From a virus (lineage: Duplodnaviria; Caudoviricetes): DNA of 53,655 nt. A program made the position numbers and the translations under genes. Location: positions 1 through 53,655 of the IMG/VR virus record IMGVR_UViG_3300017971_000063. One strand, 5' to 3'. This document shows, one piece after another, positions 1 through 52,733 of the stretch (position 1 is the first letter of the stretch; every line of letters starts with the position of its first letter). Below the pieces are notes generated by a model. The model was not told the DNA's origin and did not search any database. It was given only the letters and a program-made list of their open reading frames with translations.

Positions 1-123
1 AGGACAAGAAGGTCGACGAGGCCGTCGATATGTTACAATCCATGCTCACCGCCTACGCCGCCGGAAAGAACGGCAAGACCGACGACGGCGCGAGCAAGGA
101 ATCGGACGATGACGCGACGGCCG
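1..123. repeat. Terminal direct repeat (circular assembly overlap), left copy
   Basis: 1-123 is identical to 53533-53655, and the capsid reading frame continues across the junction. Confidence 0.97.
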
Positions 124-1547
124 TGCCGAAAGCGGAGCCGAAGAAGGACGACGAACCCGCCGCCGAACCGAAGAAGGACGGCGAACCCGCGAAAGACCCG
201 GAGAAGGTCGCCGAGGCGATCGCCGAGAAGAAAGTCAAGAAGCTCCGATGCGAGATGAAGCTCGAACGCCGCCTCAACTCGTGCAAGCTTCCCGAACTTT
301 CGAAGAAGCGGATCGCGAAGATGTTCGAGTCGCGGATTTTCGAATCCGCCGAACTCGATCAGGCGATCGCGGACGAGAAAGACTATCTCGCGGCGCTCGA
401 CAAGAGCGGCGAGGTCGTCGGTCTCGGGGAATCCGCGAGCGTCACGCTCGACGAGAGCGATCGGCGTCAACGCGCTTTCGACCTCATGATCGGCTACGAG
501 CCGACCGAGGAAGAGAAGAGCGACTACGCCGGGATCACGCCGTTCGAGGGACTCCGGCAAGCATACGAGTCTTTCACCGGCGACAAGCAGGTCCGGGGGA
601 AACTCTCGGAGTCGCGGATTCGCGAAGGCGCGACGACCTCCGACTTCCCCTACACGCTCGGAACTTCGATGTACCGGAAGATGGTACGCGAATACGGGCG
701 TGTCAAGCCGGGGTGGAAACCCTTCGTGTCGATCGAGCGCCTTGACAACTTCAAGACGCAAGAGTTGATTCGGTGGGGCGGGTTGAACGACCTCGCGGCA
801 GTCGCGGAAGCGGCGGCATATACGGAGTTTACGACTCCGTCCGAGGAACGCGCGACCTACAACGCCGCGAAGAAGGGCCGGATTTTCAAGATCACGCGCG
901 AGATGATCTTGAACGACGACCTCCGGCAACTCCGCAAGATTCCCGTCATGATCGCCCGGGCCGCACAACGGACCCTCGATCAGTTCGTTTGGGACCTCGT
1001 GACGAACTACACGACGGCGGGAGGGATCAACGGCGGGACCGTCTACACCGGCGGCGCGCTCTACACGAGCGGTCAAGGGAACCTCGGTTCGACCGCGCTC
1101 GGGTACGACGCAGTCAACACGGCGATCGACGCGATGATGCAGTTCACCGAGGCGGATTCCTCGGAAGTTCTCGGGATCATGCCGAAGTATCTCGTCCATC
1201 CGATCGGTCTCCGGTCGACGGTCATGTCGCTCCTCGAAAGCAAGTGGAAACCCGGGGCGACGAACGAGGAGAACAACACTCTTTACAAGGCACTCGAACC
1301 GATCATCGTTCCCGGCTTCCTCCGGGACTCGAACAACTGGTTCGTGATCGCCGATCCCGCGACGTGCGAAACGATCGAGATCGGTTTCGTGAACGGGCGG
1401 GAGACTCCGGAAATCCTGCTTCAAGACGGCCCGACGAACGGTGAGGTGTTCACGAACGACATCATCACCTACAAGGTCCGTCACGAGTACGGCGGAGCAC
1501 AAGCCGACTATCGGGGCTTCTACGGCTCGATCGTCGCCGGTTCGTAA
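1..1547 (+). CDS. Scaffold + major capsid protein (Mu gpT-like, HK97 fold), 3' part of the fusion gene
   Basis: Charged Pro/Lys/Glu linker, then TTSDFP..ITREMILNDDL..PKYLVHP..WFVIADP..IEIGFVNGRETPEI..YKVRHEYGG..DYRGFY. Confidence 0.9.
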   Translation, partial: DKKVDEAVDMLQSMLTAYAAGKNGKTDDGASKESDDDATAVPKAEPKKDDEPAAEPKKDGEPAKDPEKVAEAIAEKKVKKLRCEMKLERRLNSCKLPELSKKRIAKMFESRIFESAELDQAIADEKDYLAALDKSGEVVGLGESASVTLDESDRRQRAFDLMIGYEPTEEEKSDYAGITPFEGLRQAYESFTGDKQVRGKLSESRIREGATTSDFPYTLGTSMYRKMVREYGRVKPGWKPFVSIERLDNFKTQELIRWGGLNDLAAVAEAAAYTEFTTPSEERATYNAAKKGRIFKITREMILNDDLRQLRKIPVMIARAAQRTLDQFVWDLVTNYTTAGGINGGTVYTGGALYTSGQGNLGSTALGYDAVNTAIDAMMQFTEADSSEVLGIMPKYLVHPIGLRSTVMSLLESKWKPGATNEENNTLYKALEPIIVPGFLRDSNNWFVIADPATCETIEIGFVNGRETPEILLQDGPTNGEVFTNDIITYKVRHEYGGAQADYRGFYGSIVAGS

Positions 1548-15348: not shown

Positions 15349-15710
15349 GCGATCAAGTCGAACAACTCCGAGATCACTTCAACGAGACCTTCTCCGACTT
15401 CCGGAAGGAACAACGGGAACGAGATGGGAAGATTTTCGACAAGATCGACGCGCTCGTCGAACACGATCACGAGCAAGACCTCGCGATTCAAAGGAACGAG
15501 AACAAGATCGAGAACGTTGACAAGAAGGCGGATGAAATCGCCGGGGACCTCGACGACACTCGGAAGTATTGGAGCCGGAAGTTTCACTTCCGATGGTCGA
15601 CGCTCTACAAGGTTCTCGGATGGGTATTCGGGCCGAGTGGGTTGATCGCGCTCGCGTGGTTTATTTGGAGGACGCTCTCGGCGGAAGGACCGTCGAACGG
15701 AATCGGATGA
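15345..15710 (+). CDS. Coiled-coil membrane protein (holin/antiholin candidate)
   Basis: N-terminal coiled coil and C-terminal hydrophobic helix; first gene of the lysis cassette. Confidence 0.5.
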   Translation: MSDQVEQLRDHFNETFSDFRKEQRERDGKIFDKIDALVEHDHEQDLAIQRNENKIENVDKKADEIAGDLDDTRKYWSRKFHFRWSTLYKVLGWVFGPSGLIALAWFIWRTLSAEGPSNGIG

Positions 15711-16462
15711 ACGATAAATTCGACAACTTGATCGAGAAGTTCTCGAAAGCGTATTCGGTGAACCCGACTCTCGTCAAGGCCGTTATCTGGCAGGAGTCGA
15801 ACGGCGATCCGGACGCGGTCTCCTATTGTGACGCTCGCGGTCTCATGCAAATCATGCCGACGACCGGCGAGGGTCTCGGAGTGAAGAAGGCCGACGATCT
15901 CTTCAAGCCCGAAGTGAATATCGAAGCCGGGACTCGCTATCTCGCGCAACTCTTCGATCGCTTCCCGGAGATTCCCGGGATTGCCGAACGTTGGAAGTTC
16001 GCGCTCGCTTCCTACAACGGAGGTCGGGGTCACATAAACAAGGCGCTCCGCGCGGCGCGTGAAGCGAAGGTCCGCTTTTGGTATAAGTGGGAGAACGCGA
16101 AGAAGTTCCTCGTCAAATGTGACGTCAATCAAATCGTTCACTACGTCGACGGCGTCACAACGAAAATGCTCGAATACTTCTTGAAGCCGAAACCTCCGAA
16201 AGTCGGCGGACTCTTCTCGGTGATCCGGGGATTCGCCGGGATCGGCGCGTTGATCCTCGCGGTCGTGTTGAGTTGCGCTCAAAAACCGATGCTTCGAACC
16301 GATCAGGTCGAGCTTGTCCCGCCCGGGTCGGAACTTTGGATTCACCGAGATATAACGGGCGACCCGATCGTCGTCAACTCGGATGATTGGATCGCGGTCT
16401 CGTTCATTGAGAACGAGGAACGAAAACACCTTGTTTTAAAGGAGTCGGAAGATGTGGAATGA
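15707..16462 (+). CDS. Endolysin, SLT lytic transglycosylase with C-terminal hydrophobic/lipobox-like extension
   Basis: AVIWQESNG..ARGLMQIMPTT..NIEAGTRYL..ALASYNGG; ATG 15707 overlaps the previous stop. Confidence 0.9.
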   Translation: MNDKFDNLIEKFSKAYSVNPTLVKAVIWQESNGDPDAVSYCDARGLMQIMPTTGEGLGVKKADDLFKPEVNIEAGTRYLAQLFDRFPEIPGIAERWKFALASYNGGRGHINKALRAAREAKVRFWYKWENAKKFLVKCDVNQIVHYVDGVTTKMLEYFLKPKPPKVGGLFSVIRGFAGIGALILAVVLSCAQKPMLRTDQVELVPPGSELWIHRDITGDPIVVNSDDWIAVSFIENEERKHLVLKESEDVE

Positions 16463-16646
16463 AATCAAACGGAAACTCTCTTCCCGGAAATTCTGGTTCG
16501 CGGCGGTCGCGGAACTCTGTATCCTCGGCGCGGCGATCTCCGGGAAAATCACATGGGACGCCGCCGCGCAACTTTCGGTGATCGACGCAGGAGTCTACGG
16601 CGTGATCGAAGGCATCGTTGACGCGATCAGGAAAAAAGAGAAGTAA
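16452..16646 (+). CDS. Holin
   Basis: 64 aa, LSSRKFW start, two hydrophobic helices, basic C-terminus. Confidence 0.7.
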   Translation: MWNEIKRKLSSRKFWFAAVAELCILGAAISGKITWDAAAQLSVIDAGVYGVIEGIVDAIRKKEK

Positions 16647-17394
16647 AAAGTTCGTTCTCTTCGTCCTTGCATTCCTTCTCTCAATTCGATCTTGCGGTCC
16701 CCGGAATCAAGAGCCGGGGATCGGGGATCGGTTCGCTCAATTACTCCGCGAGGTCCCTTCGAATATCGAGAAGAATGTTCGGGAGAAGTGGATCGTCGAG
16801 GGCGGCGAGGCGTTCGAGAAATATTCCCGGGACTTCAAGATCGACCCGGATTTTTTGGAACGGATGATCCGGGAAGAATCGCGCTTGAAGGTCTACGCTT
16901 GCAATACGAACACGATGGCGCGAGGTCTCATGCAACTAACGTATATTGCGCTCGTCGAGTTTTGTCTCCACAATCCGGGATATTGGAAAATCCTTTTTTA
17001 CTACGATTACAAGGGCGAACTCATGCGAGACGAGAACGGTCGACTCCTCGTCAACAAGTATTCGGTTTACTGCCCGAAGATCAATATCCTCGTCGGAGGA
17101 TGGCTCTTCCGTCACCTTCGGAAGAAATACAAGGGAGACGAGGGCGACGCGCTCGTCGCATATTGCGCGGGAGAAGGAAACCTGAACTCGGTTCGATTCG
17201 CCGAATCACGTTATCGCGATCGGATTATACCACCGAAGAAGATGATCGAGGTCGACGCGATGGTGAAAGCGATCATCGCCGCGTTCGCGCTTTTCTTCCT
17301 GCTTTCAGTCGTCAACCTTTATCTCGCTTGGAGGATCAATGGACGTCGGAATATTGTCGGACCTACACGAGACGGACGGATCGCGAACGGATAA
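16618..17394 (+). CDS. Second SLT-family lytic transglycosylase with N- and C-terminal hydrophobic segments
   Basis: IREESR..ARGLMQL..NILVGGWLF..ALVAYCAG. Confidence 0.75.
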   Translation: MTRSGKKRSKKFVLFVLAFLLSIRSCGPRNQEPGIGDRFAQLLREVPSNIEKNVREKWIVEGGEAFEKYSRDFKIDPDFLERMIREESRLKVYACNTNTMARGLMQLTYIALVEFCLHNPGYWKILFYYDYKGELMRDENGRLLVNKYSVYCPKINILVGGWLFRHLRKKYKGDEGDALVAYCAGEGNLNSVRFAESRYRDRIIPPKKMIEVDAMVKAIIAAFALFFLLSVVNLYLAWRINGRRNIVGPTRDGRIANG

Positions 17395-18067
17395 TTTCAA
17401 GAACGTCGAGAAGCTATTCGTCGAGACCGGAGAAGAACTCGTCGCGAAGTGCGATCTCGTCGTATTGGACGGAGACCTTCGATGTCCTCGACAATCAGAG
17501 GGCCGGAACTTCCGGGAGAAGTTCGCCGCGATCAGGAAAGCTCACAAGAGAACGGAGAACTTCTTCGAACGGCGCCGCGCTCGGCTTCGGATGTTGAAAG
17601 GGAATCACGATAATATGTTCCCGATGCCGAGGCGGTTCGAGGTCGTCTATCCGAATTGCGCGCTCGTCGTGACTCACGGTCACGAGTTCGACAAGTGGAA
17701 CTCGAAATATAAGTTCGTCGGAGAGGCGGCGACGGTCCTCGCGGGATTGATCGAGCGCGTCGGATGGCCGAACGCCGAGACCGTTCTCGGATCATTCGCC
17801 GAACGGATCGTCGGATCAGATTCCCGGGCCGAACGATCGATCTATTCGGAGGGAATGAAACGCGACGTCCTTCGATTTCGATCGAGGACGGCTTTCGAAG
17901 ATCACGTCATTCGAGTGATCGGTCACACTCACGACCTCGGCGTCCGGGAGGAGCCGACGATCGACGCGACGCTCGTTCAATCCGGTCGTTGCTGTCACGG
18001 TCGAGTTGACTTCGTGATCGTCAACCTCGACGCGCGGTCGGTCCGGACCGAGTCCCGGAGACCGTGA
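17339..18067 (+). CDS. Calcineurin-like metallophosphoesterase
   Basis: SDLH, DGD, GNHD, HGH and GHTH motifs. Confidence 0.88.
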   Translation: MDVGILSDLHETDGSRTDNFKNVEKLFVETGEELVAKCDLVVLDGDLRCPRQSEGRNFREKFAAIRKAHKRTENFFERRRARLRMLKGNHDNMFPMPRRFEVVYPNCALVVTHGHEFDKWNSKYKFVGEAATVLAGLIERVGWPNAETVLGSFAERIVGSDSRAERSIYSEGMKRDVLRFRSRTAFEDHVIRVIGHTHDLGVREEPTIDATLVQSGRCCHGRVDFVIVNLDARSVRTESRRP

Positions 18068-18240
18068 TCCGGGCCGTTTTCAAAACTCGCTAATAGCGGC
18101 CCGGAGAGAGGGTCCGATCAGATAAATGGTACAAGGACACCGGAAGGCGTGAAAGTCCTCTCCTACGCACCGTGACGCTTCAAATTCGGGCATCCTACGA
18201 CACCTTTTCCGCCAATAACCCCTTTCTTCTATATATAACG

Positions 18241-18327
18241 TGACACGCTGTCAAACCCCTATTTTCGACCCCTGCCAGAATGTCATTTTTTTTCTATTTC
18301 GGGGAAAAAGTGCTTGACAAATTGGCA
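18241..18327. promoter_or_regulatory. Three 13-bp palindromic operator-like sites TG(A/C)CA-N3-TG(T/G)CA
   Basis: TGACACGCTGTCA 18241, TGCCAGAATGTCA 18273, TGACAAATTGGCA 18315. Confidence 0.6.
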
Positions 18328-18342
18328 TCCCCGGACTATGAT
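18314..18342 (+). promoter_or_regulatory. Sigma70-type early promoter
   Basis: TTGACA-17 nt-TATGAT with an upstream A tract. Confidence 0.8.
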
Positions 18343-18391
18343 GTAATTGTCAATTGAGAGTGAGTTCGAATCAACCTCTTGATTGTACACC

Positions 18392-18404
18392 GATCTTTGA
18401 CAAC
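18392..18404 (+). promoter_or_regulatory. boxA-like antitermination element
   Basis: GATCTTTGACAAC in the early leader resembles rrn boxA. Confidence 0.5.
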
Positions 18405-18586
18405 GGGAAGTTCGAAGGACAAAAGGTTTCAGGGCAGGGGCGGGGGACGCGGAAAGTGGTCCCCGGGAAAGCACCGCAAGTCGGCCACCTTGAAACACTC
18501 GGGCAACAAGACCGTCGGAACTATCTCAACCCGGAACCCGACAACGAAATCTCCGGGGGCGACACGACGGCAACCTCTCCCCTTTT
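18405..18586 (+). ncRNA. Structured untranslated leader RNA (unidentified)
   Basis: Nested helices GTTTCAGGG/CCTTGAAAC, GGGGAC/GTCCCC and AGTTC/GAACT; no credible ORF. Confidence 0.45.
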
Positions 18587-18588
18587 AA

Positions 18589-18668
18589 TCAGGTATCAAG
18601 GCGGAGTCGAAGCGAGAGTTTCGGCTCCGAGTTGATCCTTGACGGATCACAACAAACGAAGGGGAGGT
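18589..18668 (+). repeat. Structured intergenic element copy 1
   Basis: TCAGGTATCAA / inner stem / TTGATCCTTGA / GGATC / AAGGGGAGG. Confidence 0.85.
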
Positions 18669-18673
18669 CGAAC

Positions 18674-18856
18674 ATGGACGACAAGAAATTCGCAGTTTAT
18701 CAGGGGATCAGGGATACGGTTATTTCCGCGATGTATCGCGCGGACTACAACCGGAAGGACATCGAGGACGCGCTTCGGATGTTACGTGAGGACATCAACG
18801 AAGAGTTCGACGATCCGAAACCGGAACCGAAGAAATTCTCTCCTCACAACAAGTAG
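18674..18856 (+). CDS. Early hypothetical protein (60 aa)
   Basis: SD AAGGGGAGG; stop abuts copy 2. Confidence 0.75.
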   Translation: MDDKKFAVYQGIRDTVISAMYRADYNRKDIEDALRMLREDINEEFDDPKPEPKKFSPHNK

Positions 18857-18933
18857 TCGAGGTTTCAACAAAGGGTCGGAGCGATCCGGCCCTTGATTGA
18901 ACCCTTGAAGGGTTCTCAACAACGAAGGGGAGG
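18857..18933 (+). repeat. Structured intergenic element copy 2
   Basis: TCGAGGTTTCAA-CA-AAGGGTCGGA-GCGA-TCCGGCCCTT-GA-TTGAACCCTTGA-AGGGTTC..SD. Confidence 0.92.
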
Positions 18934-18938
18934 TTCAC

Positions 18939-19238
18939 ATGAAAAAGTATTCGAGCGAGAAACATCTGGAGCAAGTCGAGAAACAGATCGAGCGCGAGGC
19001 GAAGGGAATCGTCTACGAGAATTTACAGAAAGCGGTTCACGCTCTCGTCGAACTTCACGACGACGCTTCGAAGTCCTATCACAAGGGCGGCGATTCTCTC
19101 GACGACAAGCGCGGATACAACGTTCGGTGTTTGATCTATCTCGACTTGATCCAGAAGATCAAGAAGATCGAAGGTAAATTCGACCCGAATGAGATTATCG
19201 AAGAGCCGGAAGTCCGGATCGTTCGAGTCGTCAAATAG
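18939..19238 (+). CDS. Early hypothetical protein (99 aa)
   Basis: SD; flanked by element copies. Confidence 0.75.
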   Translation: MKKYSSEKHLEQVEKQIEREAKGIVYENLQKAVHALVELHDDASKSYHKGGDSLDDKRGYNVRCLIYLDLIQKIKKIEGKFDPNEIIEEPEVRIVRVVK

Positions 19239-19322
19239 TCGAGGTTTCAACAAGAGATCGGACTTCGGTCCGGTCTCTGATTGAACCCTTGCGGTTCAAA
19301 AACAAAACATCGAAGGGGAGGT
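19239..19322 (+). repeat. Structured intergenic element copy 3
   Basis: Inner stem GAGATCGGAC-TTCG-GTCCGGTCTC. Confidence 0.92.
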
Positions 19323-19327
19323 TTACA

Positions 19328-19594
19328 ATGAACAAGATCAAAGTTTCCTACGATTTGGCGAACGTGGTCGATGCGGCGAAGTGGATCAAGGGCGACGTCG
19401 AGAAGATCGTCGACGAGGCGACGTTCCGGACGCGGGAACTCGTCGAGATCGGCGACGATCGGGTCGAGGACGTCGTCGAGAGCTTCAAAGAACGAGCGCT
19501 CTCGGAAATTACCGACGCAAAGAAACACCTTGAAGCGCTTCACTCATGGATCGAGCGCGTAGGAAATCGCAAGAGCAAGGATCAGGAGAAATAG
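19328..19594 (+). CDS. Early hypothetical protein (88 aa)
   Basis: SD; flanked by element copies. Confidence 0.75.
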   Translation: MNKIKVSYDLANVVDAAKWIKGDVEKIVDEATFRTRELVEIGDDRVEDVVESFKERALSEITDAKKHLEALHSWIERVGNRKSKDQEK

Positions 19595-19673
19595 TCGAGG
19601 TTTCAACAAAGGGTCGGAGCGATCCGGCCCTTGATTGAACCCTTGAAGGGTTCTCAATTCAAGAAGGGGAGGT
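19595..19673 (+). repeat. Structured intergenic element copy 4 (core identical to copy 2)
   Basis: About 63 nt identical to copy 2. Confidence 0.92.
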
Positions 19674-19678
19674 TCACC

Positions 19679-19828
19679 ATGAAGATGTATCAAGTTTATA
19701 TTCTCAACGCGGACGGGACGACTCAATATACAAACGTATATACAGCGAACAGAAAGTTCGCCGACGATTACGCCGCTTCGATGACAAGTCTCGGATATTG
19801 CGCGGTTGTGGAAACAGTCGAGAAATAA
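19679..19828 (+). CDS. Early hypothetical protein (49 aa)
   Basis: SD; flanked by element copies. Confidence 0.65.
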   Translation: MKMYQVYILNADGTTQYTNVYTANRKFADDYAASMTSLGYCAVVETVEK

Positions 19829-19908
19829 TCGAGGTTTCAACAAGAGATCGGACTTCGGTCCGGTCTCTGATTGAACCCTTGCGGTTCAACAACAAGGAAA
19901 GGGGAGGT
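19829..19908 (+). repeat. Structured intergenic element copy 5 (core identical to copy 3)
   Basis: About 61 nt identical to copy 3. Confidence 0.92.
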
Positions 19909-19913
19909 TCACC

Positions 19914-20264
19914 ATGAAGCTTGCAAAGTTCGAGGAAAAGGTTTTCGTCGAGATCGTTCGCGGACAGTACAGCGGCGAGACGGGATTCTCCGACGTGATC
20001 CCGGAGGACATCTACAAGAATCTCGGATGTTCACCGAAGGCCGTCGGCGGCGCTCTTTCTTCTCTCGATAAAAAGGGACTCGTTTTCGTGGAAGATTTGA
20101 GCGGCCAACTCGACAACGGGATTCGAACGATTATCTATCTCACAACTAAAGCGTGGAAGATGGTCGGCGTCACCGACGAGGAGATCGGAAACGGTTATTA
20201 CGACCGCGAGACGATCGGCAAGTTCATGCGGTCGGCGATCGAGAAAGGGATCGTCGCAGAGTGA
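19914..20264 (+). CDS. Early protein, possible winged-helix domain
   Basis: IYKNLGCSPKAVGGALSSLDKKGLV..IIYLT pattern. Confidence 0.6.
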   Translation: MKLAKFEEKVFVEIVRGQYSGETGFSDVIPEDIYKNLGCSPKAVGGALSSLDKKGLVFVEDLSGQLDNGIRTIIYLTTKAWKMVGVTDEEIGNGYYDRETIGKFMRSAIEKGIVAE

Positions 20265-20342
20265 GGTTTCAACGAAGGATCGGAACGAAAGTTCCGGTCC
20301 TTGATTGAACCTTCACGGTTCAAAATCAAGGAAAGGGGAGGT
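20261..20342 (+). repeat. Structured intergenic element copy 6
   Basis: GTGAGGTTTCAA..GGATCGGAAC-GAAA-GTTCCGGTCC..TTGAACCTTCAC-GGTTCAA. Confidence 0.9.
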
Positions 20343-20347
20343 TGAGA

Positions 20348-20602
20348 ATGAAAACGATCACGACTCACAAGTTCGCAACGACGACGGAGTTCGACATCAA
20401 CAAGCGGATCGAACTCGGGATTCCGCTCACCCGGAAACAAGTCAAGGCGAAGAAACAACGGAAAGCGAATCCGCCGACCGCTCTCGGCTATCAACGGAAA
20501 CACGGCGTCGAGTGCGTTCCGGTCTACACTTCCGACGGTCATTGCTTCATCGCTCGGAAGGACGTCGCCGATCGCCTTCGGAGGAACGGCGAGTCAAGTT
20601 GA
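20348..20602 (+). CDS. Early hypothetical basic protein (84 aa)
   Basis: SD; flanked by element copies. Confidence 0.7.
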   Translation: MKTITTHKFATTTEFDINKRIELGIPLTRKQVKAKKQRKANPPTALGYQRKHGVECVPVYTSDGHCFIARKDVADRLRRNGESS

Positions 20603-20679
20603 CGTTTCAACAACGGCGCCGGACTTCGGTCCGGCTCCGGATTGAACCGTCAAGGTTCAACAATTCAGGAAGGGGAGGT
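20599..20679 (+). repeat. Structured intergenic element copy 7
   Basis: TTGACGTTTCAA..GCCGGAC-TTCG-GTCCGGC..TTGAACCGTCAA-GGTTCAA. Confidence 0.9.
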
Positions 20680-20685
20680 TTCAAA

Positions 20686-21126
20686 ATGGTCAAAAATATA
20701 ACGGTAGGAACGCGCGGAAACAAGAAGGTCAAGATCACGCTCCGTCGCAAGACTCACATGCGCCACCCGAACGGATGGTCAATCAAGGTCTACGATCCGG
20801 AGACGAAGATCACGACGGAAGGTTATACGAACCGTCTCGAACAACACGTCGCTCTCGAAAAGGCGATCGCTCTCGCTCACAAGATCGAGAATCGGAACGA
20901 GCTTCTCAACGCTCTCCGGACGATCACCGGCGACGCGGACATTCGCGGCTTTTGCTTCTCGCAAAATGACGCGGCGATCCGCGATCAGATCGCGAAGGGC
21001 GAAAAGGTCTCGGACGCCGAACTCGCGCGACACGCTCGGGCGAAGAAGGAATACTACGAGATCGTTCGACCGCTTTTTAAGACGGCGTTCGCGGCGTTCA
21101 AACACTTCCGCGACAAACAACTTTGA
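20686..21126 (+). CDS. Early hypothetical protein (146 aa)
   Basis: SD; flanked by element copies. Confidence 0.75.
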   Translation: MVKNITVGTRGNKKVKITLRRKTHMRHPNGWSIKVYDPETKITTEGYTNRLEQHVALEKAIALAHKIENRNELLNALRTITGDADIRGFCFSQNDAAIRDQIAKGEKVSDAELARHARAKKEYYEIVRPLFKTAFAAFKHFRDKQL

Positions 21127-21210
21127 TCGAGGTTTCAAGTCCGAGGTCGAATTTCGGTTCGGCCTCGTGTTGAATCTTCGGAGCAAGGTTCAAAAAATAG
21201 AAGGGGAGGT
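21127..21210 (+). repeat. Structured intergenic element copy 8
   Basis: TCGAGGTTTCAA..CGAGGTCGAAT-TTCG-GTTCGGCCTCG..TTGAATCTTCGG..GGTTCAA. Confidence 0.88.
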
Positions 21211-21214
21211 CAAC

Positions 21215-21478
21215 ATGGAATACGACGAGATTTTAAGTTTCGCGTCCGAGGCCGATCGGTTACGGTCGAGCGCTTCGGAGATCAGCAGGAAAGCGGGACG
21301 GGTCGCCGGAGAGATCAACGAGTTCGTGACTACGCTCGCGCTCAAGAAGGACGATCCGGGTCGGTGTCTCAAGGCGTCGCGAGTAATGTTGAAAAATATC
21401 GTCACGCGATCGCTCGAACTATCGGACGAGATCGAGGAACTTCTCGGACGCTTCGAGATCGAAGAAAGCAAAAAGTAA
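21215..21478 (+). CDS. Early hypothetical helical protein (87 aa)
   Basis: SD; flanked by element copies. Confidence 0.7.
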   Translation: MEYDEILSFASEADRLRSSASEISRKAGRVAGEINEFVTTLALKKDDPGRCLKASRVMLKNIVTRSLELSDEIEELLGRFEIEESKK

Positions 21479-21480
21479 AG

Positions 21481-21560
21481 TCGACGCTTCAACGTGGGGA
21501 TCGAAGTTCGCTTCGGTCTCCGATTGAGTCGTCGAGACTCAACAACAAAGAAGGGGAGGT
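21481..21560 (+). repeat. Structured intergenic element copy 9
   Basis: TCGACGCTTCAA..GGGGATCGAAG-TTCG-CTTCGGTCTCC..TTGAGTCGTCGA-GACTCAA. Confidence 0.88.
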
Positions 21561-21564
21561 CGTT

Positions 21565-21936
21565 ATGAAAAATAGAATGTTGTATAACGAGGACGGCTCG
21601 ATTGCGATTCCGTTTTCGAAAGTGAGTTTCTTCGCCGTCGATCAACCTCGCGGGAAGAAGTTCACGATCGAAGCGTATTTCGTCCCGGGACACTCCGACG
21701 AGGAACGCTCCTTCACGATCAGCAAACACGAGACCGAGGAAGAAGCGAAGTCCGCGTTGAAGGCGATCCGGGAAGCGGAATCGCGGAACGATCTCGCGCT
21801 CGCGGTGAGTATCCTCAAGAACGCTCGCCGCGCAATGCGTTTGACGGAAGCGGAAGATTCTCCCGTCAAGGAACTCCGGCTCGAAGGGTTCGACGCCGCG
21901 ATCGACGTTCTCTCGAAAGTGTCAAGCGGTTCGTGA
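21565..21936 (+). CDS. Early hypothetical protein (123 aa)
   Basis: SD from copy 9. Confidence 0.7.
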   Translation: MKNRMLYNEDGSIAIPFSKVSFFAVDQPRGKKFTIEAYFVPGHSDEERSFTISKHETEEEAKSALKAIREAESRNDLALAVSILKNARRAMRLTEAEDSPVKELRLEGFDAAIDVLSKVSSGS

Positions 21937-22073
21937 CGAACGATCACCGCGACGAGACAAGGGCGATCTCGGAGGGACGGTCTCTCGGGGCCGTCCCTCG
22001 AAACCCTCAACAAACGGCCTCTCCCGACCTTGTCACGCCGAGAAAAAAAAGCGCAAAAAAAAGAAAAAAGTGC

Positions 22074-22103
22074 TTGACAATTTGGCATACATGACCCTAT
22101 AAT
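22074..22103 (+). promoter_or_regulatory. Sigma70-type promoter with overlapping palindromic operator
   Basis: TTGACA-18 nt-TATAAT, A-tract UP element, TGACAATTTGGCA over the -35 box. Confidence 0.8.
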
Positions 22104-22158
22104 ATAGTTACGTTGAGAGTCAAGCTTGACTCTCGAAATTCAGGAAGGGGAGGACAGA

Positions 22159-22989
22159 ATGGCCTACACGAAGAAGAGCAAGGAGTTTTACGAAAACCGG
22201 AAAAAGGAGATCGAAGGGAAGCTCGACAAGGTTCTCCGCGAGTCGTTCACCGACGCCGAGAAGATGCGGAAACTCTCGCTTCACTTCCGGATCACCGGTC
22301 TTTACAACTATTCGTTCATCAATTCGATCTTGATCGCTTCGCAGGGCGGGAAGCTCGCGCAGTCGTTCAAGGCGTGGAAGAAACTCGAACGTCACGTCAA
22401 GAAGGGCGAGCGCTCGAAGATTTTTATCTTCATTCCCTATTTCAAGAACGTCGACGAGAAGAACGCGATCACCGGCAAGACCGAGACGATCAAGAAGCTC
22501 GTCGGGTTCGGGACCGGTCCGGTTTTCGACATCGATCAGACGGACGGAAAGCCGCTCGAATACGATCACAACTCCGAGGACGTGATCGACGTCGACTATA
22601 CCGAACTAAAAGTCAAGGTCGAGAAAGGATTCGACGTCGAGATCACCGAGAAGTACACGGGAAGCGCTCGCGGATACACCGACGGGAAGCGGATCGCGAT
22701 CTCCGAGATGTCGAACAATACGGACAAGGTCAAGACGCTCGTCCATGAACTCGCTCACGTCGTCCTCGAACATTGCGGGAAGGGTCGCAAGGCGCGGAAC
22801 GTGGTCGAGGTCGAAGCGGAAGCGGCGACGCTCTTCGTCGAATCGTTCCTCGGCTACGACGTCGAACTCTCCGAGACCTACATTGCGAATTGGAAGTCGT
22901 CGGAGATCGGGCGGGACAGCTACAAGAACGTAATCCGCGCGGCGGACAAGATCATCAAGTCGCTTTTCATCGAGAAAAAAGCGGCGTAG
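22159..22989 (+). CDS. ArdC-like antirestriction/ssDNA-binding protein with zincin-like domain
   Basis: YNYSFINSILI..SFKAWKKLERHVKKGE..VFDIDQTDG; HELAH..EVEAE. Confidence 0.85.
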   Translation: MAYTKKSKEFYENRKKEIEGKLDKVLRESFTDAEKMRKLSLHFRITGLYNYSFINSILIASQGGKLAQSFKAWKKLERHVKKGERSKIFIFIPYFKNVDEKNAITGKTETIKKLVGFGTGPVFDIDQTDGKPLEYDHNSEDVIDVDYTELKVKVEKGFDVEITEKYTGSARGYTDGKRIAISEMSNNTDKVKTLVHELAHVVLEHCGKGRKARNVVEVEAEAATLFVESFLGYDVELSETYIANWKSSEIGRDSYKNVIRAADKIIKSLFIEKKAA

Positions 22990-22992
22990 GTT

Positions 22993-23072
22993 GCGAGGTT
23001 TCAACGACGAGGTCGGAGCGAAAGTTCCGGCCTCGGATTGAACCCTTGCGGTTCAAATCAAGGAAGGGGAGG
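22993..23072 (+). repeat. Structured intergenic element copy 10
   Basis: GCGAGGTTTCAA..GAGGTCGGAGC-GAAA-GTTCCGGCCTC..TTGAACCCTTGC-GGTTCAA. Confidence 0.9.
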
Positions 23073-23078
23073 TCGAGA

Positions 23079-23510
23079 ATGAAAAAAAAGTTGTGGAGCG
23101 AGTTTCGGAAGTCCCTCGAAGGGATCGCCGACCGATACACCGCGAAAGCGGAACGGATCGAACAGTCCGACGACATCGCCGACGGTGACTCCTTCCTTTC
23201 CGGAGCGGAGAAGGCCGCGCTCGCCGCGAAATATTACGGCAAGGCCGAAGCGGTCGAGATGGTCGACGAGTTCGTCGACGAAGCTCGGTCGGAAAGTGAA
23301 GAGGTCAAACGCTCGATCGTTGCTCCGATCGTTCTCTCGAAGGTGAATGATTTGATCGTCGCGGAATCGGCGGAGTTGGAAAGTGCGAAGCGGAAGAATC
23401 TCTCGACGAGTGCGATCGTCGCTCGTCTCACCGCCGAAGTCGATCAACTCGGTCGGCTCAAAAAACAAGTCGAGGGATTCGTCAACCGGCCAGTCGACAA
23501 AGAGAATTGA
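23079..23510 (+). CDS. Early hypothetical helical protein (143 aa)
   Basis: SD; flanked by element copies. Confidence 0.7.
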   Translation: MKKKLWSEFRKSLEGIADRYTAKAERIEQSDDIADGDSFLSGAEKAALAAKYYGKAEAVEMVDEFVDEARSESEEVKRSIVAPIVLSKVNDLIVAESAELESAKRKNLSTSAIVARLTAEVDQLGRLKKQVEGFVNRPVDKEN

Positions 23511-23590
23511 TCGACGCTTCAAGGCGTGATCGGACTCCGGTCCGGTCACGAGTTGAGTCGTCGAGACTCGCAGGATCAAGGAAGGGGAGG
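23511..23590 (+). repeat. Structured intergenic element copy 11
   Basis: TCGACGCTTCAA..CGTGATCGGAC-TCCG-GTCCGGTCACG..TTGAGTCGTCGA-GACTC. Confidence 0.88.
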
Positions 23591-23597
23591 TTTCAAA

Positions 23598-23864
23598 ATG
23601 GAAACGCCGGATATTTACAGCGACGAGAATTTGGGGAAACTCAAATTCAAGAAGGACCGACCTCTCAAATCGTGGAAGGTCATGCGGTTCTTTCGCGCGC
23701 GAGGATGGTCGTTGATCCTCACCGTCTACGAGGCCGAGATCGCGAAGCGACACGTCGAGACGTTGATCGCGAATGGCGTCGCCGTCTCCGATCTCATGAT
23801 CGTCGAAACGATCGAGATCGAAACGCGGGTCGAAGTAGATCGAGAGTCGGAGGTTTCAAAATGA
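23598..23864 (+). CDS. Early hypothetical protein (88 aa)
   Basis: SD from copy 11. Confidence 0.7.
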   Translation: METPDIYSDENLGKLKFKKDRPLKSWKVMRFFRARGWSLILTVYEAEIAKRHVETLIANGVAVSDLMIVETIEIETRVEVDRESEVSK

Positions 23865-24049
23865 GAAAACTCGAAAAGGAAGAATTGAAGGACGCGCTCG
23901 GCGTCGTCGCTTGCTCGTTTTCCTTGAAAGGGAAAGCGAAGCGTTGCGCGAAGTGCGAGTTCGTCGAGGCGTGTCGGCGGATCGCGTCCCGGGTCAAGTC
24001 GATCGTTGAGTCGGTCGAGAAGTCCGGACGAAGAAGGAAAACGGAATAG
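23861..24049 (+). CDS. Small Cys-rich hypothetical protein
   Basis: ATGA overlap with previous gene; C..CAKC..C. Confidence 0.6.
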   Translation: MRKLEKEELKDALGVVACSFSLKGKAKRCAKCEFVEACRRIASRVKSIVESVEKSGRRRKTE

Positions 24050-24139
24050 AATGACCTCATGGGGAGGGACCGGCGGTGATCGTATTGACTCCGCTTGATC
24101 CCTCCCCGACCCTTCCTTCCGGGTCGAAGAAAAAAACGC

Positions 24140-24174
24140 TTGACAAAACGTCAAGACAATGAGACAACTCGTCA
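24140..24174 (+). promoter_or_regulatory. Promoter -35 box with two operator-like palindromes
   Basis: TTGACA at 24140; TGACAAAACGTCA 24141 and AGACAACTCGTCA 24162; -10 box weak. Confidence 0.5.
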
Positions 24175-24202
24175 ATCGAATCTACCAAAAGGGAGGACGT
24201 GA

Positions 24203-24490
24203 ATGACAGAATCGAAGAAGAGCAAGGGAACGGTTCGTCCGGATATTCGGACGATCCGACTCCGCCTTGAAACGAGGAAGCGGCTCGAAACGTTCGCGCA
24301 CCTACAAGCGCGGTCCGTTTGGAGGGTCGCCGATCACATTCTTTCTCAATACCTTGACGAGAAGATCGGATGTCAGTTCTACTCGTCCGAGGGCCGCAAG
24401 TGCAACTTAAAACAATGCGGCGTGAAGTGCGGCGGGATCAAGGCCGCTTGCGAACACCCGACATATAAGTCGGGAGAACTCTACGTTTGA
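24203..24490 (+). CDS. Ribbon-helix-helix DNA-binding protein with Cys-rich tail
   Basis: RTIRLRLETRKRLETFAHLQARSVWRVADHILSQYL has RHH periodicity. Confidence 0.65.
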   Translation: MTESKKSKGTVRPDIRTIRLRLETRKRLETFAHLQARSVWRVADHILSQYLDEKIGCQFYSSEGRKCNLKQCGVKCGGIKAACEHPTYKSGELYV

Positions 24491-24502
24491 TCGGAGGGAA
24501 CA

Positions 24503-25759
24503 ATGGGAAAGCAGGAAGGAAAGGCGAAAGGAAATTCGGAATCGGAAAATCCCGATAATCTCCCGGCCACCGCCGGAGGTCGCGACGTTTCGAACGTCCG
24601 GCAAGGAGCGGGACCGAGAATCGAGATCGATCCGGTCGAGACTCTTCAACGGCAAATCGCTATTGTCGAGGACGTCTATAAAAAGATCATGCGGAAGGAT
24701 CACCACTATGGCGTGATCCCTCGCACGAAAAAACCGACGCTCCTGAAACCGGGGGCGGAGAAGTTGATCTCGACCTTCCGACTCGCTCCGAAGTTCCGCG
24801 AGTCGAAGGAATGGCTTCCGGACGGACACCTTTCCGTTGACTACGTTTGCGAGTTGTATCGGATCGAGGACGGAAAATTCGTCGGCGAGGGAGTCGGTTC
24901 GTGTTCGACGCTCGAAAGCCGCTATCGTTATCGGTGGCAAAACTGCGGTCGTCCGAGTCAAGAATATTGGAATAACCGGAACGCCTATCCCGATTATAGA
25001 CACTTCAAGGACGGAAAGGGCGGCTACTGGTTGAAGAAGCGGATCGAAAACAAGGACATTGCCGATCAATATAACACCGTGAAGAAGATCGGAAAGAAGC
25101 GAGCGGAGATCGATGCCGTCCTCACCGTGACGGGAGTCTCCGACGTATTCACACAGGACGCCGAAGATTTTCACGACTACGACGCCGATCCCGGCGGAGA
25201 GAATGTCAATTCGGCCCCTCCGTCAAATTCCGGGTCGCCTAAACCGGCGTCGAACTCCGGGAATGGTCGACCTCTCAATTCTGGCGGCGGTTATCAACGA
25301 CCGTCCGGGTCGCAGTACGTTCCGCCGTCTCCCCGGGGATCACAGGCGCCGGGAGATCACCGTCGCGAGGGATTGAAGCGCGGAGACGTCGCGAAGGACC
25401 CGCGTCACATTGAACGAGTCGCGGAAATCGTCATGAGCGCGAACGAGAAGGGAATCGACGCGGGAACGTTGATCGCGTGTCTCCGGGACTCCCGGGTCGC
25501 GGTCCCGAACTACGTCAAGGGATTCGATCAGTTCCGTTATTTCTACGACGACGAACTTGACATCGTCGACGCCTATATTCATGAAGGCGAGGTCAAGACC
25601 GGCAGGGAACCGGCTCCGTCGTCGGGACAATCTCTCGACGCCTCGGGACCTCCGTCGACGACTCCTCCTCCGGCGCCGCCGACCGAGGCGCCGCCGATTC
25701 AGGAGAAGAAGTTCGACGACGTGATCCCGCCGACCGAACCGCCTCCGCCGGTCGAATAG
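24503..25759 (+). CDS. Putative single-strand annealing/recombination protein
   Basis: HYGVIP..KKPTLLKPGAEKL..GEGVGSCST.E.RY..NTVKKIGKKRA.IDAVL; Pro-rich C-terminus; near a Gam-like gene. Confidence 0.6.
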   Translation: MGKQEGKAKGNSESENPDNLPATAGGRDVSNVRQGAGPRIEIDPVETLQRQIAIVEDVYKKIMRKDHHYGVIPRTKKPTLLKPGAEKLISTFRLAPKFRESKEWLPDGHLSVDYVCELYRIEDGKFVGEGVGSCSTLESRYRYRWQNCGRPSQEYWNNRNAYPDYRHFKDGKGGYWLKKRIENKDIADQYNTVKKIGKKRAEIDAVLTVTGVSDVFTQDAEDFHDYDADPGGENVNSAPPSNSGSPKPASNSGNGRPLNSGGGYQRPSGSQYVPPSPRGSQAPGDHRREGLKRGDVAKDPRHIERVAEIVMSANEKGIDAGTLIACLRDSRVAVPNYVKGFDQFRYFYDDELDIVDAYIHEGEVKTGREPAPSSGQSLDASGPPSTTPPPAPPTEAPPIQEKKFDDVIPPTEPPPPVE

Positions 25760-26988: not shown

Positions 26989-27332
26989 AAAAAGCGAAGA
27001 AGAAAACGATCTCCGTTCCGCCGGACTACGTCGTCTCGTTCCGCGTCGATCCGAAGAAGATCGGACCGAATAAGAAGCGGACGTTCGAGAAGGTTCTCGC
27101 CTCGATCGACGCTCGGATCAACTGCGAGGAAGTCCCGATCAGGACAAAGGAGCCGAAGGCGATCGTCGGCTCGAAGGTCGTCGGATCACAACGACACATG
27201 ACTTTTGAGGCGCTTCTTCCCGAAGGGACGAAGATCGAGATCGAGCCGGGATTCGTGATCTATCTCGGAGCGACATTCCGTCTCGTCGGTGGGCGCCTCG
27301 ACGACGTCAAGTTCGAAGAGGATTTATTTTGA
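26985..27332 (+). CDS. Hypothetical protein (115 aa)
   Basis: ATGA translational coupling. Confidence 0.6.
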   Translation: MKKAKKKTISVPPDYVVSFRVDPKKIGPNKKRTFEKVLASIDARINCEEVPIRTKEPKAIVGSKVVGSQRHMTFEALLPEGTKIEIEPGFVIYLGATFRLVGGRLDDVKFEEDLF

Positions 27333-28183
27333 AAATCCTCGTCACGGTCGGCGAAGGCGTCGGGAACATGGTCGAGACGACGCCGTTGATCTCGAAGCTC
27401 GCGTCGCGGTGCAGGGTTGACGTCCTCGCGAAACCGACGGTCCGTGGAACCGAACAAATCCTCGACGATCGGAGATTCGTCAACGAGCTTTTCACGATCG
27501 ACGACCCGCCGCCGGACGTCTACGACTTCGTCTTTCAAACATTTTCGGCGAATACGCACAAGGACCCGGAGTTCGGCGCCTTTGATCGCGTGATCGAGTT
27601 CACGGCGGACGATACGCGATACGCTCACGCCTACGGCGAAGCGAAGGCGAATAATCGCTTGATACAGCGTGTAGGAGAGGACTTTCCGGGCGACATGGTC
27701 TCATGGGTCGCTCGGAGCGGGAGAGTCCCGCAGGACGCGAGTTTCGAGCATATAGACGTAGTCCTTCACCCCGGCGCGTATAACGCTTCGAAAAGGTGGC
27801 CGTTTTTCCGGGAATTGGACGAATATATCCGGAGTCGCGGTCTCTCGACCTTCCTATTCCGGGAGAATCCGCCGGATATTCGAGACGCGGCGGAAGTGAT
27901 CTCCCGGGGATCGGTTTTCGTCGGGAACGATTCGGGGCAGTCTCACGTCGCGGCGGCGCTCGGAGTCGAGACGGTCATGATCTTCGGGCCGACGCCGATC
28001 GAGAAGAACGTCCCGTTCAACTACAAAGTCGTTCACGTCGTCCGCGTCCCGACCCATTGCCGACCTTGTTTCTACCAAAAGGCGACGTTCGAGAATTGCT
28101 CGTTCGCGTGTCAACACAAGATCACGACCGAAGAAGTCCTCAAAATCACGCTCGAAGCGCTCGGAGATCGGAGGAAAACATGA
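27329..28183 (+). CDS. Glycosyltransferase family 9
   Basis: GVGNMVETTPLI; LHPGA..SKRWP; FVGNDSGQSHVAAALGVETVMIFGPT. Confidence 0.88.
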   Translation: MKILVTVGEGVGNMVETTPLISKLASRCRVDVLAKPTVRGTEQILDDRRFVNELFTIDDPPPDVYDFVFQTFSANTHKDPEFGAFDRVIEFTADDTRYAHAYGEAKANNRLIQRVGEDFPGDMVSWVARSGRVPQDASFEHIDVVLHPGAYNASKRWPFFRELDEYIRSRGLSTFLFRENPPDIRDAAEVISRGSVFVGNDSGQSHVAAALGVETVMIFGPTPIEKNVPFNYKVVHVVRVPTHCRPCFYQKATFENCSFACQHKITTEEVLKITLEALGDRRKT

Positions 28184-31886: not shown

Positions 31887-31893
31887 ATGGTCC

Positions 31894-31965
31894 GACTCCG
31901 TCGTCTAACGGACAGGACGCCGCCCTTTCAAGGCGGGAACGCGGGTTCAATTCCCGCCGGAGTCG
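31894..31965 (+). tRNA. tRNA-Glu (TTC)
   Basis: Acceptor GACTCCG/CGGAGTC, anticodon arm CCGCC-CT-TTC-AA-GGCGG, T arm GCGGG-TTCAATT-CCCGC; CCA not encoded. Confidence 0.9.
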
Positions 31966-32066
31966 AACGGGTATAGCCATGCCGAAGTCGGCCAGAGGAA
32001 CCTTTGTAAAGGAGCGAATCTGTCGTCCGACAAAAGCTATTGACAGCCGGGAAAGACCGGCACAAC

Positions 32067-38523: not shown

Positions 38524-38528
38524 AATAT

Positions 38529-38599
38529 TCCCGGGTCGTTCAACGGCAGGACTCCGCTCTTTGGAAGCGGAAACGGAGGTTCGAATCCTTCCCCGGGAG
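38529..38599 (+). tRNA. tRNA-Gln (TTG)
   Basis: Acceptor TCCCGGG/CCCGGGA, anticodon arm CCGCT-CT-TTG-GA-AGCGG, T loop TTCGAAT; CCA not encoded. Confidence 0.9.
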
Positions 38600-38614
38600 A
38601 ACAAGGAGGAAACA

Positions 38615-41787: not shown

Positions 41788-42144
41788 ATGCCGTTTGCTA
41801 AAGGTCAATCAGGGAACCCGAAAGGGAGACCGAAGAAAGGCGGAGCGATCGCGGAGTTGATCCGGGCCGAGTTATTCCGGACCCTTCGCGAAGGGAAGTA
41901 CGACTTGAAGCTTTTGAAGCGGCGAGGACTCACCGGAAACCTCACCGTCAAGGAAGCTTTCATTCGCTCGCTCTTCACGTTCGCGTTTCGCGGCGAAGGA
42001 TGGGCGGCGAAGTTGATCGCGAGCTACGAGTCCGGTCTCCCGAAGCAGTTGATCGAAATCGAAGGAGACCTCGAACACGGTATTTCCGACAAGCTCTACA
42101 ACGCTATCACCTCGGGGCGATATGGGAAGAAGGGTCGGAAGTAA
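41788..42144 (+). CDS. terS: Terminase small subunit (DUF5681-like)
   Basis: MPFAKGQSGNPKGRPK; upstream of the large subunit. Confidence 0.75.
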   Translation: MPFAKGQSGNPKGRPKKGGAIAELIRAELFRTLREGKYDLKLLKRRGLTGNLTVKEAFIRSLFTFAFRGEGWAAKLIASYESGLPKQLIEIEGDLEHGISDKLYNAITSGRYGKKGRK

Positions 42145-52718: not shown

Positions 52719-52733
52719 ATGCAGGGAGGCCGA

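Follow-up and report, generated by a model that had tools for sequence, protein, structure and literature searches.

The complete virus record IMGVR_UViG_3300017971_000063 (53,655 bp, with direct terminal repeats; this whole stretch is referred to below as the window) carries 11 similar intergenic elements, E1 to E11, which span positions 18585-23600 of its early operon. Positions 18857-18938 are copy E2. In every element, strand B can pair with an upstream strand, A, in a long hairpin or with a downstream strand, C, in a short one. We tentatively read the 11 elements as ribonuclease III-type (RNase III-type) punctuation marks in a polycistronic early transcript, with B:C as a 5'-terminal protective hairpin after cleavage, and consider this quite possible rather than probable. 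A covariance model made from the copies gave exactly 11 matches on the + strand (71-90 bits), and the reverse complements of the same 11 copies scored only 22-36 bits. Downstream of one of two promoters, P1 and P2, ten of the 11 copies lie in the interval that separates a stop codon from the following ribosome-binding site.

The long hairpin was the minimum free energy (MFE) fold of every copy, at -29.6 to -39.1 kcal/mol. For E2, the z-score was -4.5 and none of 200 shuffled sequences folded as well. The hairpin totals 20-25 bp in all 11 copies and has a constant anatomy. At the base, 5-8 bp form the lower stem A1:B1 (in E2, TCGAGG paired with CCTTGA). It is followed by a 1x1 pyrimidine-pyrimidine mismatch, present in every copy (U.C in eight, C.U in two, U.U in one), and by a 5-bp middle stem (UUCAA:UUGAA). 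Above the middle stem, 5 bp from the mismatch in 11 of 11 copies, lies a purine-rich internal loop (2x2, once 3x2). The loop is separated by 10-12 bp from an apical tetraloop, of the GNRA type in five copies and the UNCG type in six. The upper stem of 10-12 bp retains a U.G wobble in 10 copies. The parts of E2 and its immediate surroundings are as follows.

18854-18856, + strand: TAG stop of the 60-aa gene upstream, flush with the E2 stem
18857-18908, + strand: E2 long hairpin, with a GCGA tetraloop
18857-18868 and loop, + strand: 5' arm, with A1 at 18857-18862, mismatch U at 18863, A2 at 18864-18868 and loop bases CA
18871-18894, + strand: upper stem with the GCGA tetraloop
Loop to 18908, + strand: 3' arm, with loop bases GA, B2 at 18897-18901, mismatch C at 18902 and B1 at 18903-18908
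18899-18915, + strand: B:C hairpin GAACCCU-uga-AGGGUUC, -9.5 kcal/mol
18924-18941, + strand: extended Shine-Dalgarno GAAGGGGAGGT and the ATG (18939) of the downstream 99-aa gene

The A:B helix of the original prediction, which was made from the sequence of this region, was present but turned out to be longer than described: it continues, through the pairing of TCGAGG with CCTTGA, into the would-be loop of B:C, which is formed by B1, the 3' strand of the lower stem. In E10, the A:B helix reaches the first bases of C. On a MAFFT alignment, 97% of 231 A:B cells were paired. Both sides had changed in 11 of 21 pairs, and the covariation score was 0.436 versus 0.202 for shuffled data; neither value was reached in 500 shuffles. 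Sliding the partner columns by 1-3 positions brought pairing down to 25-60%. The A:B helix is real. From the G.U pairs, the tetraloops of RNA type and the model scores, which differ between the strands, we conclude that the element works as + strand RNA.

The seven B positions of the alternative hairpin are UUGAA, the mismatch base and the first base of B1, and a complementary C lies 5-10 nt downstream in all copies. A 7-bp B:C hairpin is thus possible in 11 of 11 copies. We counted B:C pairs on a structural alignment and on a separate short alignment, as MAFFT misplaces C in E2, E4, E8 and E11. On the structural alignment, 71 of 77 pairs form, a number reached in 36 of 20,000 trials when C strands were shuffled among copies. 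On the eight distinct rows, 89.3% of cells were paired versus 81.7% after shuffling (0/500), and the covariation score was 0.342 versus 0.157 (0/500). Both-sided change was found in two of seven pairs on these rows, which 167 of 500 shuffles also reached. Folded alone, the B:C hairpin had energies of -7.2 to -9.5 kcal/mol (z -1.9 to -4.1), and 0-13 of 200 shuffled sequences were as stable.

Variation in B is confined to two columns. Position 5 forms A:U in eight copies, G:C in two and U:A in one; position 6 forms C:G in eight, U:A in two and U.G in one. In E9 and E11, GAACC of B has become GAGUC. Strand A tolerates this through a U.G wobble and a position that was already mismatched, and in C both bases have changed so that Watson-Crick pairs with B are retained. 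C follows B, not A, in these copies, and the complementarity is therefore not a by-product of A and C being mutual repeats. E9 and E11 are sister copies, however, so the B:C covariation amounts to two or three independent events, not eleven. A single B change in E1 is matched in both A and C, and in E2 and E4 the B:C helix is rebuilt in a shifted register. The B:C helix is probably real. The original prediction held that both exclusive folds are kept by compensatory change; the case for this is strong for A:B, and reasonable but thinner, with its two columns, for B:C. The helices it had written out all occur: TTGAACC-cttgc-GGTTCAA in E3, E5 and E10, GAACCCT-tga-AGGGTTC in E2 (18899-18915) and E4, GATCC-ttgac-GGATC in E1, and TTGAGTC-gtcga-GACTCAA in E9, with a 6-pair form in E11.

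As the upper hairpin is common to both folds, little separates them in energy: masking A changed the MFE by 2.7-8.4 kcal/mol. In full-length RNA, the predicted probability of A:B, P(A:B), was at least 0.75 in eight of 11 copies, and E7, E8 and E9 were near balance (0.15, 0.17 and 0.51, respectively). The coding end GUCAAG before E7 (20589-20612) can pair with strand A (UUGAC), and the full-length fold of this copy is tipped to B:C (P 0.80). With A masked, P(B:C) was 0.55-0.94 in 10 copies, E10 failing. In RNA truncated two bases before B, it was 0.57-0.95 in nine copies, E8 and E10 failing. Accordingly, folding all copies with and without A bore out the expectation that B:C would take over, in 9-10 of 11. 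When the stop codon and the following bases up to +9, +12 or +15 nt were held single-stranded, P(B:C) reached at least 0.5 in five, eight and 10 of the 11 copies, respectively. The bistable switch originally proposed is, as predicted here, thermodynamically sound and could be operated by a terminating ribosome, with eight copies shifting at +12 and 10 at +15.

The first paired base of A lies between 1 nt ahead of the stop codon's first base (E6, E7) and 3 nt past its last base (E10); strand A had been described as close to the upstream stop codon in copies 2-11, and the stem indeed starts from -1 nt to +3 nt of it. Spacers between array genes measure 82-89 nt. The remaining copies are listed below.

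18588-18643 (long hairpin) and 18633-18649 (B:C), + strand: E1, with a private A2/B2/C variant, AUCAA / UUGAU / GGAUCA
19239-19292 (long hairpin) and 19281-19299 (B:C), + strand: E3
19595-19646 (long hairpin) and 19637-19653 (B:C), + strand: E4, 95% identical to E2
19829-19882 (long hairpin) and 19871-19889 (B:C), + strand: E5, 95% identical to E3
20261-20316 (long hairpin) and 20305-20323 (B:C), + strand: E6, stop codon TGA within the stem
20599-20653 (long hairpin) and 20642-20660 (B:C), + strand: E7, stop codon TGA within the stem
21127-21181 (long hairpin) and 21170-21193 (B:C), + strand: E8, longer B:C loop
21481-21535 (long hairpin) and 21524-21542 (B:C), + strand: E9, UUGAGUC/GACUCAA variant
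22993-23049 (long hairpin) and 23038-23056 (B:C), + strand: E10, positional counterpart of the single element in a related contig (L033/L035)
23511-23564 (long hairpin) and 23554-23570 (B:C), + strand: E11

E2 and E4 (18844-18919 and 19582-19657) and E3 and E5 (19226-19305 and 19816-19895) are alternating pairs at 95% identity, separated by genes that look unrelated; a two-element unit may therefore have undergone duplication or gene conversion. Similarity between copies extends 6-9 nt into the upstream coding end (GAGAAATAR).

Each downstream gene has a long Shine-Dalgarno sequence, GAAGGGGAGGT, with the ATG 5-7 nt behind it. On the + strand, the string AGGGGAGG, a part of GAAGGGGAGGT at the end of the element, has 14 occurrences, of which 12 precede early-array genes; it is absent from the - strand. 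Other genes of the record have ordinary GGAGG/AGGAG sites. The B:C hairpins lie 11-17 nt before the GGAGG. This layout was compared with the two leaders that start at the following promoters.

18314-18342, + strand: promoter P1, TTGACA-17-TATGAT, sigma-70-type, 11/12 consensus positions; starts the early operon
22074-22103, + strand: promoter P2, TTGACA-18-TATAAT, sigma-70-type, 12/12 consensus positions

P1 and P2 share the upstream string AAAAAGTGCTTGACA; the same 15-mer stands before early genes of the related contig (L033 52-66). The predicted P1 transcript opens with a hairpin at about 18349-18388. The predicted P2 transcript begins with 3 nt, a 10-bp hairpin starting UUGAG (22113-22136; -13.6 kcal/mol, z -4.7), 12 nt and GGAGG. 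Neither an A strand nor an upper hairpin is found in the P2 leader, and its order of hairpin, 12 nt and GGAGG is that of B:C. A hairpin, an A/C-rich spacer and a strong ribosome-binding site would thus be the 5'-end layout of this phage, which B:C would recreate at internal ends. As both predicted primary transcripts begin with a hairpin, the part of the original prediction in which B:C caps the downstream message after cleavage gains indirect support.

E1 differs from the other copies in what precedes it. The leader from P1 to E1 (18349-18585) is about 240 nt long, G-rich (GGGCAGGGGCGGGGGACGCGG) and not unusually structured (z 0.73). An open reading frame (ORF) at 18379-18588 ends exactly at the E1 stem, but it has a TTG start, no ribosome-binding site and a very basic product. 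E1 retains A, B and C with private compensating changes though no convincing translated ORF lies upstream, and a cleavage trigger therefore fits this copy better than a ribosome trigger.

Under the favoured processing reading, A would hold B in the uncut RNA, in a hairpin of 20-25 bp whose internal loops have fixed positions. The 3' side would be cut, at or near the central 2x2 loop, by an endonuclease that is most likely the host's RNase III. The upstream cistron would retain the tetraloop-capped upper hairpin as a 3' shield, and the freed B would pair with C; a 5'-terminal hairpin would then stand at the start of the downstream cistron, ahead of an A/C-rich spacer and a very strong Shine-Dalgarno. 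Each small early gene would in this way become a separately stabilised, independently translated message. We favour processing because of the shape of the substrate, the T7-like placement, the 5'-end layout of P1 and P2, and E1. An RNase III signal spans about two helical turns, or about 20-22 bp of double-stranded RNA, and the hairpins have 20-25 bp in the 11 copies and 25 bp in L033/L035; a loop or mismatch near the target is present, as modelled anatomy, in 11 of 11 copies; and 10 copies are intercistronic. The passages of PMC3867540 used here give 22 bp for the idealised substrate, state that cleavage may be confined to one strand by loops or mismatches at the target and describe single-strand cleavage as leaving RNA-stabilising 3' hairpins.

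Several points weigh against this reading. What the analysis yields directly is the pair of structures with their covariation, energetics and layout; cleavage, the enzyme and the effect on stability we infer. That the host possesses RNase III is an assumption. The transcription starts of P1 and P2 are predicted. The internal loops of the elements are symmetric, and those of T7 RNase III sites are asymmetric. A cut in a single strand would leave A and B joined by 10-11 intermolecular pairs, so that release would need a further step. The B:C helix does not win in E10 (P 0.03-0.07) or in truncated E8 (P 0.11), and its covariation is carried by two columns in two or three lineages. In L033/L035, the downstream alternative helix is weak, with eight A/U-rich pairs (-4.1 kcal/mol, z -1.32, 17/200 shuffles). 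The comparison with T7 is a reading of folds. Finally, a plain 3' exonuclease barrier would require neither cleavage nor C.

We also regard it as possible, if rather unlikely, that the elements are a self-refolding punctuation device of a kind not yet described. The hairpin would be opened by a ribosome or a double-strand nuclease, and the shared strand would pass from A to C. If this is true, one exchange separates the cistrons, leaves a tetraloop hairpin on the upstream 3' end and builds a 5' protective hairpin downstream, and the ribosome-binding site stays free. The device would then be a natural counterpart of the engineered insulators used for synthetic operons.

An unlikely alternative, the main idea of the original prediction, is that the ribosome operates the switch: on terminating, it would melt the base of the hairpin and pass B to C, which would couple expression or lower the cost of unwinding. 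The position of the stem is what such a mechanism would use, as it starts -1 to +3 nt from the stop in all 10 gene-following copies and +1 nt from it in L033/L035. So are the predicted response to a single-stranded stop region (five, eight and 10 copies at +9, +12 and +15 nt), the small distance between the states and the near balance of full-length E7, E8 and E9. The stop-to-stem spacing may, however, be partly inherited, given the similarity between copies that runs 6-9 nt into the coding end. The predicted accessibility of GGAGG did not track the switch either: full-length RNA averaged 0.50, compared with 0.59 after masking of A and 0.58 after truncation, and masking A raised the accessibility in E2, E4 and E9, lowered it in E6, E8 and E10 and left it flat in five copies. 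Gating of the Shine-Dalgarno by the switch was dropped on these counts. Conserved pairing of B with the Shine-Dalgarno region was likewise dropped, being appreciable in only two of 11 truncated RNAs (E8 and E10). Each downstream gene is served by its own very strong ribosome-binding site behind a spacer of 82-89 nt, whereas coupled genes elsewhere in this genome overlap, and E1 retains the design with no credible upstream ORF. The original prediction had the B:C hairpin couple downstream expression to upstream translation; the inconsistent accessibility, the sites and spacers just named and E1 speak against this. The translational relay through the array that it foresaw is not supported, since predicted Shine-Dalgarno accessibility does not follow the switch.

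It is quite unlikely that the elements are passive barriers to 3' exonucleases and insulators that work without cleavage, C being a decoy that captures the pyrimidine-rich B and spares the ribosome-binding site. Stable tetraloops and folds of -30 to -39 kcal/mol would suit a barrier, and intercistronic hairpins with a stabilising effect on the upstream segment are described for the puf operon and repetitive extragenic palindromic (REP) elements in the consulted part of PMC7509114. In truncated RNA, masking C reduced mean GGAGG accessibility from 0.58 to 0.40, with a fall of at least 0.2 in five of 11 copies. C may therefore help to hold B off the ribosome-binding site, a modest effect in silico that is small or absent in the other six copies. 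A passive barrier leaves unexplained why mismatch and internal loop are fixed and why the U.G and the UUCAA:UUGAA stem are conserved, and also why the promoter-proximal leaders have hairpins of their own.

An operator for a phage or host RNA-binding protein, either a translational regulator or a Cas6/Csy4-like endonuclease, seems improbable. It would be bound at the core (UCGGA/UCCGG, the U.G, the mismatch and the loop). Core and middle stem are conserved in sequence and not in pairing alone, L033/L035 also has AUCGGA...UCCGGU with the U.G, and a binder could be encoded among the unassigned array genes (11 of the 12 tested had no Pfam match). Yet no RNase, Cas6, RNA-binding protein or other candidate was found among the 59 Pfam-scanned and 31 PHROGs-scanned proteins of about 85 predicted genes, and an operator alone does not explain strand C. 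In the same scans, no phage-encoded RNase III, Cas6 or integrase was recognised.

We consider an element acting as DNA highly improbable, whether a cassette recombination site (attC-like or T4 PeSL-like), an insertion like a miniature inverted-repeat transposable element (MITE), an intrinsic terminator lacking its tail or a CRISPR-repeat mimic. Small same-strand ORFan genes that each carry an imperfect palindrome resemble a cassette array, the alternating 95%-identical pairs E2/E4 and E3/E5 point to duplication or gene conversion, and GTTTCAAC...GATTGAAC resembles the ends of many CRISPR repeats. The G.U pairs, the RNA tetraloops and the strand-asymmetric model scores favour RNA, however, and target-site duplication would not give a C that follows B, not A, in E9 and E11. 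No promoter consensus was found inside the elements. Either hairpin is followed by just 1-3 T in 8 nt, and an attenuator or intrinsic terminator was rejected on this count for the long hairpin (11 of 11 copies) and because the scan found no + strand terminator-like site between array genes or at any element. The attC boxes R'' and R' have the consensus RYYYAAC and GTTRRRY, respectively. An integron attC site was rejected, with RYYYAAC in none of the 11 5' arms, GTTRRRY in two of the 11 3' arms and no integrase among the 59 proteins. A CRISPR repeat or RNA anti-CRISPR mimic was rejected as well: no Rfam repeat family matched at E <= 5, and the paired unit is 52-57 nt versus 23-50 nt.

Searches for further copies yielded one related element. 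The search with the ArdC-like protein encoded by the first gene after P2 (22159-22989) returned two viral relatives and one extra 1.3-kb metagenome contig. The protein in contig L033/L035 is 58% identical, and directly after its gene, in the same place as E10, lies a single hairpin of 25 bp (z -5.44) that scored 34.7 bits (E 2e-6) with the covariance model. This hairpin starts with AUCGAG 1 nt after the stop and retains the core AUCGGA...UCCGGU and the U.G wobble. With a completeness of 45%, the contig breaks off at the place expected for the array; it has AAGGGGA/AAGGGGG before genes and some TTG starts. A complete genome with a 40%-identical ArdC-like protein has no element. The 1.3-kb metagenome contig (L036, 700-810) carries a 55%-identical ArdC-like gene followed by a different, shorter post-stop hairpin, which does not match the covariance model, and a AAAGGAGGAGG ribosome-binding site.

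All other searches were negative. Positions 17001-25000 had no blastn match in the phage collection. A gapped A + B pattern hit 26 IMG/VR loci, none with the element (best 15.8 bits, E 0.3), and a pattern of B:C plus Shine-Dalgarno found nothing in IMG/VR. The 349-aa protein, the 418-aa protein and TerL led to no viral relatives, and scans of genome contigs found nothing. The promoter 15-mer occurs at at least 120 IMG/VR loci; among the 80 listed, the covariance model found no element. In 18250-23700, no Rfam family matched at E <= 5 beyond eight weak, unrelated matches. In the open-access literature searched, we found nothing specific on repeated intergenic stem-loops in phage early regions. 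The element is a candidate new RNA family with a very narrow known distribution.

In the surrounding genome, all long ORFs are on the + strand. We scanned 59 proteins with Pfam and 31 with PHROGs, and matches included terminase, portal, tape measure, SLT-type lysins, a Mu Gam-like protein, a replication initiator and methyltransferases. A head protease/capsid fusion gene is split over the ends of the window (1-1547 and 52719-53654), as expected of a circularly permuted or terminally repeated record. The element array sits in a block of small genes without family assignment, immediately 3' of the lysis genes. The gene at 22159-22989 encodes a protein with ArdC-N and an M78-type metallopeptidase (HExxH), likely with an anti-restriction function; no other array gene had relatives in the collections searched. 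The phage has tRNA genes for Glu (UUC) at 31893-31966 and Gln (UUG) at 38528-38600, and only these two tRNAs reached the gathering threshold of Rfam 15 in the whole window. The terminase gene lies at 42122-43639; among isolated or named phages, ANMV-1 gave the best match to its TerL (32.7% identity), and the record of ANMV-1 has 'uncultured archaeon' in the host field. This similarity is too distant for naming a host. The SLT lysins (15569-16462 and 16618-17394), a family 9 glycosyltransferase (27329-28183) and the sigma-70-type promoters point to a bacterial host.

If the processing reading is true, a dozen tiny early genes get their own protected, independently translated messages from a single promoter. 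The element would be compact (about 85 nt), with two folds tuned to within a few kcal/mol, and would add a refolding step to the classical RNase III punctuation of the T7 type; it would also supply a naturally diversified set of 11 insulator parts. It would be a candidate RNA family not represented in Rfam, in which covariation is clean for A:B and thinner for B:C. Were it a mere stability hairpin, it would be nothing out of the ordinary, found in a phage lineage that is poorly sampled.

We compared the elements with known systems, of which SAS (start-associated sequences) and their extended form (ESAS) in Cluster K mycobacteriophages have the closest described layout with a function still open, as far as the consulted parts of PMC3203893 and PMC12699233 go. 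In both cases, a ribosome-binding-site motif stands in one orientation before the starts of some non-structural genes. According to these sources, SAS is preceded by an imperfect inverted repeat in about half of cases, and its function and that of ESAS were still open as of 2025. The passages on ESAS describe no alternative third strand. The arms of our elements are 22-25 nt around a tetraloop, compared with 17 bp around a 4-13 bp spacer in the ESAS repeat, which directly precedes the SAS, and the hairpin goes with the upstream stop and keeps a distance of 25-30 nt to the ribosome-binding site. The motif of our elements is GAAGGGGAGGT. The 13-bp SAS consensus GGGATAGGAGCCC, which allows up to 2 mismatches, had five matches in the window at <=3 mismatches versus 10.6 expected by chance; none was in the array, and an SAS reading was rejected for this absence.

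In trp-type attenuators, alternative 1:2 and 2:3 pairings compete, and lambda cIII mRNA has two alternative folds influenced by RNase III. The elements resemble both in that one strand takes part in two exclusive helices, with the upstream partner where a ribosome would cover it. Unlike trp-type attenuators, they have no 3:4 terminator, no T-run and no conserved masking of the ribosome-binding site, follow a full-length gene in place of a leader peptide and are repeated 11 times.

The predicted P1 and P2 leaders and B:C share with known 5'-terminal stabilisers a hairpin near the 5' end followed by a strong Shine-Dalgarno. Such stem-loops combined with strong ribosome-binding sites are described as mRNA stabilisers for ompA, aprE, ermC and SP82 in the part of PMC7509114 consulted. 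The difference is that the B:C hairpin would exist only after the RNA is cut or opened.

The early RNA of phage SP82 in Bacillus is a second case of similar processing, its RNase III sites appearing in the reference list of PMC4838370. For T7, five RNase III signals are described in an early precursor of about 7000 nt (PMC3867540, in the part consulted). We folded the T7 spacers 0.4/0.5 and 0.7/1, each of which gave a bipartite hairpin reaching from the stop codon UGA to about 20 nt before the next Shine-Dalgarno; these spacers hold RNase III sites, which the T7 record as used does not annotate. Like the elements, the T7 early operon has repeated, mutually similar bipartite hairpins between the cistrons of an early transcript made by the host polymerase. 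In both, the base of the hairpin is at the upstream stop and its end some 20-30 nt before the next Shine-Dalgarno, and about two helical turns are interrupted by an internal loop near the middle. The elements differ in their third strand, C, none being seen in the T7 spacers by visual reading of MFE folds only, and in their symmetric loops, tetraloop caps and eleven copies as against five, with a cleavage that is here only inferred. Judged from sequence and predicted structure, we would place the element among the intercistronic signals of phages for processing or stability, as a variant form.

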